A stretch of 64,000 nt of DNA from an uncultured archaeon (lineage in GTDB: Archaea; Thermoproteota; Nitrososphaeria; Nitrososphaerales; Gagatemarchaeaceae): assembly GCA_963817525.1 (NCBI GenBank), contig CAWFOU010000001.1, positions 64,001-128,000 on the forward strand, written 5' to 3'. Below the pieces are notes generated by a model, which was not told the DNA's origin, searched no databases, and was given only the letters and a program-made list of their open reading frames with translations. Within the stretch, counting starts at the first letter, position 1; each line of letters begins with the position of its first letter. The translations under genes and the position numbers were made by a program. This document shows, piece after piece, positions 47,660 to 51,886 of this stretch.

Positions 47660-49240
47660 TCACCTTGCGGGCTTTACGAGGGCCTGGATCTGCTTTTGGC
47701 TCGTCTGCGCCAATTTGGTCATCCCGCCCGATAGGCTCTGGCTCTTGATCCCCTTGGATTGGAGGACCTGGGCCGCCCTGAGGGACGTGTTCCCCGACAT
47801 GCAGACGAGGATGGCCCTCTTGTCTCCGCTGGAGCCTCCCGCGTCGAAAATGGCCTTGAGCGACGGAGGGACCTCCTGCCCGGTGATGAGCTTCACGACG
47901 TCGCCCGGCGATGCCACCTTCACGGAGCTCTCAGGGACGCCTAGCGAGCTGGCGATCAGCCTCTTCCCTTCTTCGCTCGGGACGTATCCCATGTGCGTCC
48001 AGACCACCTCGTCGAACCTCCCCGGCTTGGCCCTTGCACCCTCGACGGTCACCTCTAGCCCTTCCTCTTGCTCCTCCTGGCTCTCCTCGGATTCCAGCAC
48101 GCGCCTGTACTTCTTCGCGCCGTCCGCCAGGACCACCACGAACTCCCCGCCGATCCCGAAGTTCACCATCTGAAGGACTGCGTAGAGCGCGAGCGCGCTG
48201 CTCTCGCCGATGTCGAACCCTCTCCTGACCATAAAGCCGAAGAGCCTCTTCGCCTGGTCGAAGTCGACCTCGTGCTCGCCCGCGTACCTCTCGGGCTCGT
48301 AGAACTTCAGCCCCTCGGCCTTGCCCTTGGTGCGTATACCCGCCACGTCCTTCCCCTCGGGCGGGAAGACCACATGGACGACCTTCTTGCCGCCGTACTT
48401 GGCCTGCACGTACCTGCTCAGGCCCACCGATGTCCCGCCCGTCCCGAACGCGCAGACGACGCTGCACTCCCCGAGCGAGTGCCCGAGCCCTCGCAGCTGC
48501 TGGTCGATCTCAGGACCCGTGATCGTCGCGTGGGCGTCGACGTTCTGCTCGTTGTCGTACTGCTCGGGGCAGTAGCCGCCGTATGCGTCAGCGAGGACCT
48601 TGGCGAGGTTGATGACGTCCTGCCTCGCGAGGAACTCCTCGATCCTGGGCCGCGAGGAGTCGAAGACCGCGATGTCGAGCCCTATCTCGGCGAACCTCTC
48701 GCGCATGGCCGTGGCCACGACCTTGGCGAGCAGCATGTTGGGGTCCATCTGCATGCCTGGAGCGGGGCAGACGTCCACGTCGAGGTCGACCGTCTTGACG
48801 TTGCTCTTCTCCAGCTCCTCGAGCACTCCCTCTTGCAGCTTCCTTGACACCAGCACTACGACCTTGACCCCCAGGTTCCCCAGGAGTCCAAGCGCTATCC
48901 CGAAGTTGCCAGAGGTGGCCTCGAAGACCACCATCCCCCTCCTCAGCATGCCCGACTTGATCGCCTCGTGGACGATCTGCGTGGCGGCCCTGCTCTTCAC
49001 CGAGCCTCCCAGGAGCGGCGCTTCCAGCTTCCCAAAGACTCGAAAGTCCCTGTCCGACAGGTCGAGCCCGTACTCGTCGCGCGCGCACTCCTTGAGCGCC
49101 TGCGTGATGTCTAGCAGCGGCGTCGGGTTGACCACCTCGCCCCCCTCAACGTGGGGGGTCCTGGCCAGTATCTGCTGCTCGAACGCCCGGAGGAGCTCCG
49201 TGTCGACGTCGGCGCCGCCCGCCTTGACGGGTGCCTGCAT
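47660..49240 (-). CDS. PLP-dependent cysteine synthase-like enzyme with C-terminal rhodanese-like domain
   Basis: GGSVKSRAA, EATSGNFG, FGTGGT. C-terminal LVCMSGNTS. Confidence 0.85.
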   Translation of the reverse strand: MQAPVKAGGADVDTELLRAFEQQILARTPHVEGGEVVNPTPLLDITQALKECARDEYGLDLSDRDFRVFGKLEAPLLGGSVKSRAATQIVHEAIKSGMLRRGMVVFEATSGNFGIALGLLGNLGVKVVVLVSRKLQEGVLEELEKSNVKTVDLDVDVCPAPGMQMDPNMLLAKVVATAMRERFAEIGLDIAVFDSSRPRIEEFLARQDVINLAKVLADAYGGYCPEQYDNEQNVDAHATITGPEIDQQLRGLGHSLGECSVVCAFGTGGTSVGLSRYVQAKYGGKKVVHVVFPPEGKDVAGIRTKGKAEGLKFYEPERYAGEHEVDFDQAKRLFGFMVRRGFDIGESSALALYAVLQMVNFGIGGEFVVVLADGAKKYRRVLESEESQEEQEEGLEVTVEGARAKPGRFDEVVWTHMGYVPSEEGKRLIASSLGVPESSVKVASPGDVVKLITGQEVPPSLKAIFDAGGSSGDKRAILVCMSGNTSLRAAQVLQSKGIKSQSLSGGMTKLAQTSQKQIQALVKPAR

Positions 49241-49329
49241 GTTTCCAGCGTCGGGGATGCCGCCCTGAATATAAGGCGAATGATTCGGCAGCGCAATCAG
49301 TTTATCAGCCGTCGCGCCCAGGAGCGCTC

Positions 49330-49407
49330 ATGGCAGGCCCCAAACCCGTCAATTTCATAGCCGACGACGCGAAGCTCGGGAAGAACGTCAAGGTGTGGCA
49401 CTTTTGA
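49330..49407 (+). pseudogene. Orphaned original N-terminus (25 aa) of the hexapeptide acetyltransferase
   Basis: MAGPKPVNFIADDAKLGKNVKVWHF*, host-like codons, TTTAT at 49301. Aligns with AKIGKGVSIWNL of the 50102 gene. Confidence 0.85.
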
Positions 49408-49446
49408 TGGCAGGGGCGCTAATATTCTCCTAACACTTCATGATGC

Positions 49447-50105
49447 ATGCCGTGGGTACTTGGGAAAGCAGGCAATCACCCAATTGGTCGAAAATCCAAC
49501 CGCAGGACGAGGAGGAAGATACTATGGTCAAATGAGGAAATCCGCAACCTGAAATCGTCGTATTCGAGCGAGCCGATTTCTGTGTTGCTGGAAGTCTTTC
49601 CATTGCGTAGCTGGCGTTCGATTTCGGCAAAAGCAATAACACTGGGCCTGAGGAGACCGCGTACCGCGCCGCTCAGCACCACATTGAAATCTGAAGGCGA
49701 CATAGGATTCTGGGCGGGAATGGTTATCGCCGACGGTTCAGTCCTTGAAACTTGCATAAGCTCGGGGACAAGAAGAGCGAGATCCGAAGGAGGCGGAGCA
49801 AGACCGCCAAGATATTATAGCATGCCTCAAGTCAGGATTTCGATGGAAGACAAAGAGTCCCTTGAGCGGGTAGGGCGATTGTGGGGCAGGAAAGTGACCT
49901 TTTGCCAGACGAGTTCAACTGGTAACAGTGTTTGGAGCGTCAAGTCGGTGGCAAGAAAGCGATGGAGTTGCTCCAGCTGATGATGCCATATCTAGCTGGG
50001 CCGAAAAAGAAAAAGGCTCTCTATTTGCTGCAGAAATACGCTGATAGGACTAGCTTACCTGTTAAAGTGAAAGATACCTTTTTTCCATTTAGTGGAATGA
50101 CTTGA
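49447..50105 (+). mobile_element. Single-motif LAGLIDADG endonuclease with N-terminal HTH; frameshift near 49941
   Basis: WSNEEIRNL...RSWRSISAKAITLGL, GFWAGMVIADGSV. The -1 frame continues QVGGKKAMELLQLMMPYLAGPKKKKA...GMT* to TGA 50103-50105. AT-rich. Confidence 0.8.
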
Positions 50106-50602
50106 AACCTTCGAGACTCGGAAAGGGGGCGGTGGTTGATCCCAGCGCGAAGATCGGCAAAGGCGTCTCAATTTGGAACCTGTCATACGTGGGATCGAGG
50201 ACTCGAGTGGGCGACAACGTCTCGATAGGCTCCCTCGCCCACGTAGACTACAACGTCTGGATAGGCGCCGACACCAGGATAGAGGGCTCGGTCTACATCC
50301 CCCCGATGACGAGGATAGGGAAGAACGTCTTCATCGGGCCTGCAGCGGTCATCACAAACGACCCCTACCCGATGAGCAAGAAGATGGTGGGCGTGACAAT
50401 AGATGACGGCGCCGTCATCGGGGGCGGTTCGGTCATCAAGGCTGGCGTCACGATAGGAAAGAACAGCGTCGTCGCGATGGGCGCGGTGGTGACCAAGGAC
50501 GTGGCCCCTGGGGTCGTGGTCCTGGGAGTCCCGGCCCGCGTCGTCTACACCAGAGAGGAGTATGACGCTAAGAAGCTGGCCTGGGAGTCTGGAAAGACCT
50601 GA
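50102..50602 (+). CDS. Hexapeptide-repeat acetyltransferase (WbpD/WlbB-like) with replacement N-terminus
   Basis: LbH repeats, FIGPAAVITNDPYP, GVPARV. TTG start overlaps the endonuclease stop. Confidence 0.9.
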   Translation: MKPSRLGKGAVVDPSAKIGKGVSIWNLSYVGSRTRVGDNVSIGSLAHVDYNVWIGADTRIEGSVYIPPMTRIGKNVFIGPAAVITNDPYPMSKKMVGVTIDDGAVIGGGSVIKAGVTIGKNSVVAMGAVVTKDVAPGVVVLGVPARVVYTREEYDAKKLAWESGKT

Positions 50603-50843
50603 GGTACAGCCGCGACATCGCGAACATGGCGAAGACCAGGAACGCTCCCAGCCCCATCGTGAGCGCTATCTTCACGATCGATGACGGGAGGCCTGCCTCG
50701 TGGAGGGGTGGGCCGAGCGGCCTGACGATCACGAAGAAGACATAGGTCTCCCCGAGTATGAGGACCCACGACGCGGCCACGACGAACAGCATCGCGATGA
50801 GGCTGGCGACGCTCCTGTCTATCCCGCTACTCATAGCAACCAC
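50568..50843 (-). CDS. Small two-TM protein
   Basis: Hydrophobic, follows the glycosyltransferase. Confidence 0.6.
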   Translation of the reverse strand: MVAMSSGIDRSVASLIAMLFVVAASWVLILGETYVFFVIVRPLGPPLHEAGLPSSIVKIALTMGLGAFLVFAMFAMSRLYLRSFQTPRPAS

Positions 50844-51886
50844 GTCATAACCGATGTGACCACCGAGAGGAGCGCGGCGAAGGCCGTTATCATGAGGATC
50901 CTGTTCACGAGTTTCCTCTCGTCTAACGGTCCACCCACAAGCATCATCCTCACCAACGTTATCGGAGCCCGGGGGTCGACCGAAGCGTGAAGCATCATGT
51001 CGTCTCCGACGAAGGTGGGCCTCGCCGCCATCCTCTTCCTCTCGACCAGCCCCCTCACGCTGGAGAGGGTGTAGTAGGAGTTCAGGACGGCAGGGATGAG
51101 CGCGACCAGCGCCGCGATCTCGATGCCGCCGAGGAACGACAGGATGACATACATCGCGCCGAAGGAGAGGGCGCCCGAGTCCCCGTCGAATATCTTGGAC
51201 GGGTACCGGTTGAAGTAGTAGAAGGAGGCCGAGACCGCCAAGAGCGGGAGGGCTATCGCCACAGTGGCCGCGGAGGTGCCGGGCAGCGCGTATGCTCTCA
51301 GGACTATCGCGACCACCAGCGCGGCGGAGACGATGGCGGTGAACCCCGCAATCTCGCCGTTGAACGCGTCGAGCATGTTGAAGGCGTTGGATGAGACCGG
51401 GATGGAAGCCACCACGATGAGGGCGAATATGATGAAGTGCGTCCCCGTCTCGGTGAACAAGGGGAAGTAGAGTATCGGGCTGTAGACGCTCGGGTAGATG
51501 TGCTCCGCCAGGGCCACGAAGACCCCGACCGCCATCAGGAGTGCCGGCTTGACCACCCCGCCCAGCCCTTTAAGGTCGTCGTAGAGACCAATGAGCCCGG
51601 CCGACAGGACCACCACGACGAGGACCAGCGGGAGCACGGTGCCGTAGAACGCCCAGGCGACGACCTCTCCCACCACCATCGCAGCTATGATCAGAGGCCC
51701 CGCGGGAGTAGGCACCCTGACGTCGCCCTTCTTGTGGGCGTCGTTGGTCGTCCTGCCCCTGGAGACGAGGAACGTGATGTATCGGGGCATGAGCAGAAAG
51801 ACGGCCGCCGCGGGGATGAGGAAGACGAGGAGCAGAGGGATGGCATCGCCCGCACCTGGAAGCAACAGTCGCCGCCCCCTCCACAC
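50831..51886 (-). CDS. UDP-GlcNAc:dolichyl-phosphate GlcNAc-1-P transferase (MraY/GPT, AglH-like)
   Basis: DAHK, GLYDD, NAFNMLDAFNG, FNRYPSKIFDGDSG. Confidence 0.88.
   Translation of the reverse strand: MWRGRRLLLPGAGDAIPLLLVFLIPAAAVFLLMPRYITFLVSRGRTTNDAHKKGDVRVPTPAGPLIIAAMVVGEVVAWAFYGTVLPLVLVVVVLSAGLIGLYDDLKGLGGVVKPALLMAVGVFVALAEHIYPSVYSPILYFPLFTETGTHFIIFALIVVASIPVSSNAFNMLDAFNGEIAGFTAIVSAALVVAIVLRAYALPGTSAATVAIALPLLAVSASFYYFNRYPSKIFDGDSGALSFGAMYVILSFLGGIEIAALVALIPAVLNSYYTLSSVRGLVERKRMAARPTFVGDDMMLHASVDPRAPITLVRMMLVGGPLDERKLVNRILMITAFAALLSVVTSVMTWLL

Follow-up and report, generated by a model that had tools for sequence, protein, structure and literature searches.

A homing-endonuclease cassette that very probably supplies a substitute start to an archaeal sugar N-acetyltransferase gene

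We describe a locus in a 64,000-nucleotide stretch of DNA from an uncultured Nitrososphaerota archaeon (contig CAWFOU010000001.1, positions 64,001 to 128,000; hereafter the window), in which a free-standing homing-endonuclease cassette very probably lies inside the 5' coding region of a nucleotide-sugar N-acetyltransferase gene. As read from the sequence, the cassette appears to have three parts: a short spacer, a gene for a protein that combines a Myb domain with a single-motif LAGLIDADG domain, and a substitute start codon followed by about 27 codons. The substitute start overlaps the endonuclease stop codon as NTGA, and follows a G-rich motif that resembles a Shine-Dalgarno sequence. Upstream of the cassette lies a 25-codon open reading frame (ORF), here called the orphan, which is the native N-terminus of the acetyltransferase.

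An earlier note on this DNA had proposed that origin for the orphan after aligning it with the beginning of the acetyltransferase ORF that opens at 50102. The two do align codon for codon: the end of the orphan, ...DDAKLGKNVKVWHF followed by TGA, pairs with ...PSAKIGKGVSIWNL of the 50102 ORF (acetyltransferase residues 15-27, SAKIGKGVSIWNL), with 23 of 36 nucleotides identical. Taken alone this match is weak (tblastn reports 46% identity over 13 residues at an E-value of 0.07). What decides the identity of the orphan is the relatives, because they have an orphan-type N-terminus joined to the acetyltransferase body. We searched for the acetyltransferase in 40 relatives, and read the 20 best loci together with 16 more (from other genera and from genome G002). 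Among the 19 relatives' loci first fetched, 12 have the orphan-type N-terminus contiguous with the same body. Within the genus, represented by 21 genomes, 13 have this contiguous arrangement, that is, an empty site (L005, L006, L007, L009, L011, L014-L020 and L053), and their native pattern is M..KP(V/L)N(F/Y)IA(D/E)DAKLGKNVK(V/I)W(H/N)(F/Y)-(A/S)-YVG, joined to the body. The remaining eight loci (the window, L001, with L002, L003, L004, L008, L010, L012 and L013) carry a substitute with the pattern (M/L)KP(A/S)RLG.G.V...IGKGVSIWNL-x-YVG.

To compare N-termini we used the last 22 residues before the junction, for 10 extractable orphans, 26 native N-termini and 18 substitute copies, the substitute type being present in 18 loci. 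The orphans average 72% identity to the natives of the genus, each with a best native match of 73-91%, and 34% to the substitute copies. All ten match the native type of their own genus, and the window orphan is 91% identical to the native N-terminus of L006. The orphans thus group with the orthologs of the body, which is the check that the earlier note had asked for. The substitute copies share 65% identity among themselves, and none exceeds 55% with any native in the set of 26; in the window the substitute and the orphan share 27% of their amino acids. The earlier description of this segment as recoded does not hold: it is a divergent homologous segment without a close native counterpart, and no synonymous rewrite. 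The accompanying proposal, that the replacement N-terminus travels with the endonuclease gene, did hold. Of the 120 best acetyltransferase homologs in a large collection, the substitute (WNL) type accounts for 23 and the native type for 97. Ratios of nonsynonymous to synonymous differences per site (pN/pS) are 0.19 for the substitute N-terminus (pooled over 8 pairs), 0.17 for the native N-termini and 0.22-0.28 for the orphans, and the acetyltransferase body follows the host clades.

Joined to position 50183 onward, the orphan gives a native-looking protein, which would also be the case if the gene held an element that splices itself out (an intein or a group I intron, either with a homing endonuclease): the mature protein would then be orphan plus body, and the substitute would leave with the element. 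Archaeal group I introns with LAGLIDADG genes are indeed reported (PMC6125680). We regard this explanation as extremely unlikely, as no Rfam family matches at E ≤ 1 over 49000-50700. Nor is the element an intein, since stop codons and a change of frame separate orphan, endonuclease and acetyltransferase. Moreover, L002, L004, L013, L080, L081 and L082 are without orphan/endonuclease yet keep the substitute with its start codon, and the substitute is under purifying selection, as its pN/pS indicates.

The base composition changes along the locus. GC content drops from about 0.62 in the surroundings to 0.38-0.57 over 49400-50200. GC content at third codon positions (GC3) is 0.80 in the orphan and 0.87-0.90 in the neighbouring genes, in agreement with the host-like codons previously noticed in the orphan. 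In the endonuclease gene it is 0.48-0.55, and over the 27 codons of the substitute it is 0.67; the 10 codons that follow (50183-50212) have 0.60, and from there on the value is 0.90. These values are compatible with the earlier statement that atypical codons persist to about 50210, but only 10 codons bear on the point. The protein sequence is native-like from 50183 on, and the DNA of the first 10 or so body codons may still be part of the co-converted tract. Opened by its TTG, which overlaps the endonuclease TGA at 50103-50105, the acetyltransferase ORF is intact and has 166 codons. The coordinates of all parts are collected in Table 1.

Table 1. Features of the acetyltransferase locus in the window, with positions counted from the first nucleotide of the window.
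Feature	Position	Strand	Remarks
TATA-like boxes (candidate)	49267..49307, intergenic		TGAATATAAGG at 49267-49277; GTTTATCA at 49300-49307, about 25-30 nt 5' of the orphan ATG; proposed from sequence only
Orphan, native acetyltransferase N-terminus	49330..49407	+	MAGPKPVNFIADDAKLGKNVKVWHF, then TGA; 25 codons
Spacer, 5' end of cassette	49408..49446	+	GC 0.48; homologous to the L003 spacer (...GCTAATAT...TGATGC-RTG) in side-by-side comparison
Endonuclease gene	49447..50105	+	219 codons on read-through; interrupted by the lack of one base
Endonuclease, first frame	49447-49980	+	177 codons
Myb/SANT-like DNA-binding domain	~49525-49659	+	within the endonuclease gene
LAGLIDADG helix	49705-49740	+	GFWAGMVIADGS; within the endonuclease gene
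Frameshift site	49945..49946	+	two bases that remain from a codon that is I in relatives (V-x-I-G-G-K-K-A)
Endonuclease C-terminal part, other frame	49947-50105	+	second frame adds 57 codons to 50105
Substitute N-terminus	50102..50182	+	MKPSRLGKGAVVDPSAKIGKGVSIWNL; TTG start overlaps the endonuclease TGA (TTGA); 27 codons
Native acetyltransferase body	50183..50602	+	hexapeptide-repeat sugar N-acetyltransferase, to the stop codon; Pfam Hexapep

At the junction, the DNA changes from AAG AAC GTC AAG GTG TGG CAC TTC to AAA GGC GTC TCA ATT TGG AAC CTG, and the protein from KNVKVWHF to KGVSIWNL. The native site of L006 and L007 spans ...AAGAACGTCAAGGTGTGGCACTTCGCNTACGTGGG... In L008, L072, L073, L052 and L078 the orphan reaches through W-x-(F/Y)-(A/S)-Y. 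Since these orphans run through the Y codon, the insertion point in most lineages is after the Y of W-x-F-A-Y, and not after the F where it had been placed before; the window and L003 have small changes at the insertion junction. The right end of the foreign tract varies as well. After WNL, the sequence is the native-like YVGS(R/K)T in L001, L002 and L012, YVGN(N/G/D)T in L003, L004, L013 and L008, and YVGRDT in L010. Such varying right ends are what variable co-conversion tracts would give, and later divergence could do the same. The earlier note had further described the empty site as a pseudo-palindrome, pointing to the 8-mers GTGTGGCA and TGTCATAC. The two are complementary at six of eight positions, but the second lies in the substitute copy and not in the empty site. 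The empty site itself gives no support for a pseudo-palindrome: with about 60 windows scanned, the best 22-bp window of the consensus pairs at 6 of 11 positions, a value that 3% of windows from these genes attain.

The endonuclease gene is an intact single ORF of 218-219 codons in L003, L008 and L052. Relative to these three, the window copy is missing one base at about 49945-49946. Seven relatives share 62 invariant columns, of which the window copy retains 61. Two public runs (X1 and X2), which belong to one study and may be source data of the assembly, have contigs that cover 49841-50041 with 0 differences and 0 gaps at the frameshift, at a depth of 3-4; none of the public runs listed as having this sequence is recorded as RNA. 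An AlphaFold2 model of the L008 protein, built on a seven-row alignment, has a predicted local distance difference test value (pLDDT) of 79.9 and consists of a three-helix N-domain followed by an alpha-beta-beta-alpha-beta-beta-alpha core, with helices (H) and strands (E) at H83-96, E97-106, E122-133, H136-146, E151-155, E161-168 and H169-182. Foldseek against the PDB places I-MsoI, I-CreI, I-CvuI and I-TnaI at the top (E-values 9e-5 to 1e-3, probability 1.00, template-modelling score to the target about 0.5). The motif A95-D96-G97 is invariant in all seven relatives and retained in the window. A two-copy model scores 0.63 against a best of 0.00 in three controls, its runs agree in at least 97% of contacts, and the pLDDT of the partner is at least 83; the modelled interface is formed by residues 82-97, the LAGLIDADG helix. 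Of 30 proteins solved as pairs of one chain, 20 attain this mark, as does 1 of 23 solved as single chains; since similar dimers have already been solved, the dimer model shows likeness and not binding. By predicted fold, the enzyme appears to be a single-motif LAGLIDADG protein, as the earlier note had supposed, with a Myb-like N-domain in addition, and a homodimer, which the note had expected, is modelled.

The endonuclease family is tiny. A word-indexed search of 5.8 billion proteins finds six clusters, and 185,579 species genomes (a scan that may exclude the window's own genome) contain three loci, all already known from the loci of the relatives. A profile search of 1.84 billion representatives collects 2882 proteins at E ≤ 0.001, most of which match the N-domain only. 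The N-domain is called Myb-like by Pfam in multi-repeat proteins, and a few distant proteins with the same Myb plus LAGLIDADG architecture pass the Pfam cut-offs (P0110 with 30.5 bits and P0140 with 25.5 bits). In G000, the genome of the window, neither DNA nor protein searches find a further copy of the endonuclease, bar the weak L090. A search for the nuclease domain of this enzyme in a sample of the class turned up nothing in any of the 400 other genomes, and no viral contig matched either of two peptide patterns of the endonuclease. The ratio of nonsynonymous to synonymous substitution rates (dN/dS) of the endonuclease is 0.16-0.36 in the five close pairs with unsaturated synonymous divergence (dS), indicating purifying selection. 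In four of the five pairs, the dS of the endonuclease (0.11-0.18) is lower than that of the adjacent acetyltransferase (0.23-0.44), the exception being L076/L077.

Two side observations concern these searches. Many of the N-domain matches (in the range P0010-P0156) repeat the domain in tandem, 4-14 times, and in P0010 a VRR-NUC nuclease match is found as well; the N-domain family is a large, poorly annotated family of repeat proteins. L090 (G000:C7:1093839-1093952) is a 38-residue match to the nuclease domain with an E-value of 0.002, inside a 365-residue open frame.

The cassette is found at one site and with one kind of overlap. In all 10 metagenome loci found with the endonuclease profile (one of them on the same contig as L008), the acetyltransferase lies directly 3' of the endonuclease. 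In all 13 distinct loci whose endonuclease 3' end is complete, the acetyltransferase start (TTG or ATG) overlaps the endonuclease TGA as NTGA, as the earlier note had observed for the window. The orphan lies 5' of the endonuclease in 11 of the 13, is shortened in L079 and is gone in L080. Of 18 loci, 12 have a G-rich motif (GGAGG, GGTGG, GAGGG or similar) 10-11 nt 5' of the acetyltransferase start, of which the window has a weaker form (AGTGGA). The motif and the TTG start are retained after loss of the endonuclease. A crude ORF scan finds 11 other NTGA overlaps between long open frames in the window, consistent with the earlier remark that operons there use this pattern. The frameshift stops translation of the window endonuclease at 49980, 122 nt before the acetyltransferase start, so that translational coupling, if intact copies have it, is doubtful in the window.

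A more far-reaching reading, to which we give rather little credence, is that this locus is the first member of a class of prokaryotic 'gene-start-swapping' homing cassettes that tie expression of the host gene to their own translation. In such a cassette, expression would begin at the native promoter with its leaderless start and be relayed from orphan peptide to endonuclease to acetyltransferase, and the NTGA overlap together with the Shine-Dalgarno-like motif (which falls in the conserved C-terminal F-x-P-F-x-G codons) would make nonsense and frameshift mutations of the endonuclease polar on the acetyltransferase. If this were true, selection on the acetyltransferase would slow the decay of the selfish endonuclease gene, and the relay would explain why the endonuclease is under purifying selection and deeply diverged, and why the orphans seem to be constrained (pN/pS 0.22-0.28).

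The eight occupied loci of the genus differ in the state of the endonuclease. It is intact and accompanied by the orphan in L003 and L008, and has one frameshift in the window. In L002 it is 5'-truncated and frameshifted, without an orphan, and is still recognised by a hidden Markov model (HMM) with an E-value of 1e-41. L010 (HMM E-value 3e-16) and L012 (8e-11) have remnants, and in L004 and L013 the HMM detects nothing. The earlier note had held that relatives with the MKPSRLGKG-type N-terminus and no endonuclease would speak against replacement. Such relatives, with no recognisable endonuclease, exist (L004, L013, L081 and L082), but they are consistent with relics left after decay, given the graded remnants found at this position in L002, L010 and L012. 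By eye, 'RRYSMPQ' in L013 looked like a trace of the motif RRYYSMPQV; as the HMM is silent there, L013 is counted as being without a remnant.

Occupancy is patchy within the genus and extends beyond it. On a tree of the neighbouring glycosyltransferase gene (19 rows; L016 is left out, its short contig being without the gene), occupancy needs 7 changes, and well-supported branches force at least 5 of them. When the tree is built from the unlinked elongation factor 2 (EF-2; 18 rows, several of them partial or frameshifted, with no usable EF-2 in G005, G006, G012, G019 and G022), occupancy needs 5 changes, at least 4 of them forced. L052, from another genus of the family, is occupied by an intact endonuclease. 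In the class sample of 401 genomes, 339 have the acetyltransferase; for this search the best 150 rows were considered and 7 loci fetched, and the tallies include four unpublished genomes, none of which supports a claim made here. Two genomes of another order, G136 and G099, have a substitute-type N-terminus with neither endonuclease nor orphan, and three congeners have the native type; a congener protein of these two is labelled Conexivisphaerales.

In L052 and L079-L082, which come from other genera, the acetyltransferase follows a same-strand gene ending in ...SSSSG(A/T)PIYLG or ...SSEKGLPI(F/Y)LQL, possibly an oxidoreductase gene. Because this upstream gene differs from the divergent gene for a pyridoxal-phosphate-dependent (PLP) enzyme of the window, the cassette has entered the same gene in different contexts.

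The same data could be read as one ancient insertion that descended vertically, with a domesticated endonuclease (acting, say, as a Myb-type regulator or as a preceding cistron on which translation of the acetyltransferase depends) and the patchiness left by loss and by recombination with native alleles, without any homing. That the copies are deeply diverged, that the endonuclease tree is in no clear conflict with the hosts, that its ORF is under purifying selection, that the overlap with the acetyltransferase start is strictly kept in 13 of 13 loci, and that the G-rich motif and the TTG start survive loss of the endonuclease all agree with such a history. It is hard to square with the 7 changes on the neighbour-gene tree and the 5 on the EF-2 tree, with the relics in another order, and with the lower dS of the endonuclease than of the acetyltransferase in four of five close pairs. 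In five of the eight occupied genomes of the genus, an intact acetyltransferase goes with a decayed or missing endonuclease ORF, which is therefore dispensable. The orphans are host-clade-like and mostly open, which is unexpected after neutral decay for as long as the divergence of the endonuclease implies. In view of all this, we judge a single ancient insertion without homing to be improbable.

For the cassette as a homing element we propose the following course of events, with the mechanism taken from the established behaviour of homing endonucleases. A homodimeric enzyme would cut empty alleles near codons 20-29 (...AAG AAC GTN AAG RTN TGG CAY TTC GCN TAC GTG GG...). The break would be repaired from an occupied allele, whose native N-terminal codons (the orphan) may serve as the left arm and whose gene body as the right arm, and the repair would copy in the spacer, the endonuclease gene and the substitute N-terminus. 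The native N-terminus and its promoter, probably with a leaderless start, would be left stranded upstream as the orphan. The target site would now be split, with its left half replaced, in the copy that abuts the body, by the change from KNVKVWHF to KGVSIWNL. The acetyltransferase would remain whole because it is translated from the cassette's own start. The element would have invaded repeatedly or been exchanged within the genus; it presumably reached another genus, and would have left relics in another order. The cassette would then decay, and the window copy may represent the first step of decay, a single-base frameshift with all else intact.

Several results weigh against this account. The window copy, being frameshifted, cannot be active as it stands. 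The best Pfam match of the window fragment has an E-value of 0.16 and 12.7 bits against a cut-off of 22.5 (PF00961, PF14528 and others), the three intact relatives have no LAGLIDADG match in Pfam, and a profile search of PDB sequences with the endonuclease gives 0 matches, so that membership in the class rests on the predicted fold and the motif. No donor of the substitute N-terminus was found, as residues 1-40 have no scored match in the collection of 5.8 billion proteins. The endonuclease tree is a polytomy inside the genus, showing neither congruence nor conflict with the host tree, and with 45-65% identity the copies have diverged deeply, so that these data give no evidence of recent transfer. 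Part of the patchiness could reflect old presence and replacement by empty alleles through ordinary recombination. Sliding identity between L008 and L073 shows a mosaic with no sharp cassette-shaped block. Finally, the genomes are metagenome bins, with 8.75% contamination in G000 and a frameshifted EF-2 in several relatives.

This last point raises the possibility of an assembly or binning artefact, either a chimeric join or a frameshift that arose as an error in the consensus. The bin G000 comprises 15 contigs and has the contamination just given, frameshifted EF-2 genes such as those of the relatives are typical of error-prone assemblies, and the depth in public runs is only 2-5. Set against this, different bins and metagenomes yield 13 distinct loci of the same architecture, both junctions of the cassette are bridged by contigs of 2-3 public runs, and the two runs that cover the frameshift agree with it, with the proviso already made that they come from one study and may be source data. 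An artefact is very unlikely overall; it is excluded for the architecture and unlikely for the frameshift.

Two further observations on the relatives' sequences belong here. In L008, positions 589-739, a stretch of 150 nt of intergenic or promoter DNA 5' of the orphan, are 62-78% identical to L073, while the loci are otherwise 92-100% identical; this stretch beside the left arm of the cassette is locally hypervariable or recombined. In L035, L036, L037, L039, L045-L050 (the EF-2 of G010, G021, G020, G015 and others) and L005, the EF-2 or glycosyltransferase gene is split into 2-5 frame-shifted pieces. This is the pattern of indel-prone assembly, and frameshifts there are therefore not to be called pseudogenes without reads.

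The acetyltransferase matches Pfam Hexapep with an E-value of 4e-24, and in the PDB it matches QdtC (3fs8, E-value 7e-24) and the WlbB-type 3mqg (1e-16). By these matches it is a left-handed beta-helix sugar N-acetyltransferase like QdtC and WlbB; no NCBIfam equivalog reaches its cut-off. Upstream on the minus strand, at 47660-49240 with its start at 49240, is a gene for a 526-residue fusion of a PLP-dependent cysteine-synthase-like domain (Pfam PALP, E-value 1e-24) and a weakly matching rhodanese-like C-terminus (E-value 0.02), for which no NCBIfam equivalog scores above its cut-off. The two TATA-like boxes presumably mark divergent promoters, one for this gene on the minus strand and one for the transcript of orphan, endonuclease and acetyltransferase. 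A conserved gene for a probable membrane protein of 91 residues (50568-50843, minus strand) converges on the acetyltransferase gene and shares with it roughly the last 35 nt of the latter. Most relatives have this membrane-protein gene in synteny; the next gene behind it encodes an MraY-like glycosyltransferase (50831-51886).

If the locus is what we propose, a homing endonuclease can colonise an archaeal chromosomal gene that has neither intron nor intein without destroying it, by way of a substitute gene start. Such a mechanism would make chimeric genes, and would move gene segments across genera and orders. One genus holds all stages, namely empty, intact, with one frameshift, truncated, remnant, and relic with the resistant N-terminus only, and this series can be used to study the life cycle of an endonuclease and its co-conversion tracts. 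The Myb-domain LAGLIDADG subfamily is missed by current profiles, and its candidate target is narrow (about 30 bp), which suits biochemistry.

We compared the locus with four known systems. With I-CreI, I-MsoI and I-CvuI the enzyme shares, as modelled, the predicted core fold, a motif helix at the interface and a conserved acidic residue. It differs from them in sequence (14-18% identity), in its extra N-terminal Myb-like domain, in being free-standing and not intron-encoded, and in a target that is not clearly palindromic. In the homing of T4 SegF and SegG, flanking markers are reportedly co-converted and resistant flanking sequence moves with the gene, as we infer here. Free-standing phage endonucleases home without introns (PMC2790892), and the seg and mob genes of T4 resemble the present case in that they spread by cutting genomes that lack a copy. 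The phage genes are intergenic, with no duplicated and orphaned gene end, belong to the GIY-YIG and HNH families, and spread through phage co-infection and not among cellular chromosomes. In phage Aeh1, nrdA is said to be split by mobE with its function kept. The 'fractured genes' with split inteins also have an endonuclease gene inside a coding region and a host function that is preserved (PMC2677866). Both cases share with ours a free-standing endonuclease gene within a prokaryotic or phage coding region; they keep the host function by trans-splicing inteins or by assembly of two polypeptides, unlike the substitute segment and single chain seen here.

The closest resemblance is to the mobile ORFs of fungal mitochondria. 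In Glomus atp6, atp9, cox2 and nad3, and in atp6 of Allomyces macrogynus (taken as cited in PMC3630166, its reference 48), an inserted element brings a foreign C-terminus and an endonuclease ORF and leaves the native C-terminus downstream (PMC3630166). The shared features are a LAGLIDADG (or GIY-YIG) ORF within a protein-coding gene without intron or intein, a duplicated gene terminus of which the foreign copy is in use and the native copy orphaned, and a native copy that matches close relatives while the inserted copy is divergent. A search of open-access full texts found no prokaryotic and no N-terminal example of terminus replacement, which is not proof of absence. The locus described here differs from the fungal elements in its place on an archaeal chromosome (a contig of at least 1.17 Mb with aEF-2) and not in an organelle, in the Myb-like N-domain of its enzyme, and in a substitute that lies 3' of the endonuclease and overlaps its stop codon, where the fungal copy is fused in phase at the 5' side. 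Here it is the N-terminus that is replaced and the orphan retains a promoter, and the cassette must therefore supply a start codon and a ribosome-binding context. It is an N-terminal version, on an archaeal chromosome, of the foreign-terminus strategy of the fungal mobile ORFs, which thereby gains a counterpart at the opposite gene end, in a different domain of life and in the chromosome of a cell.

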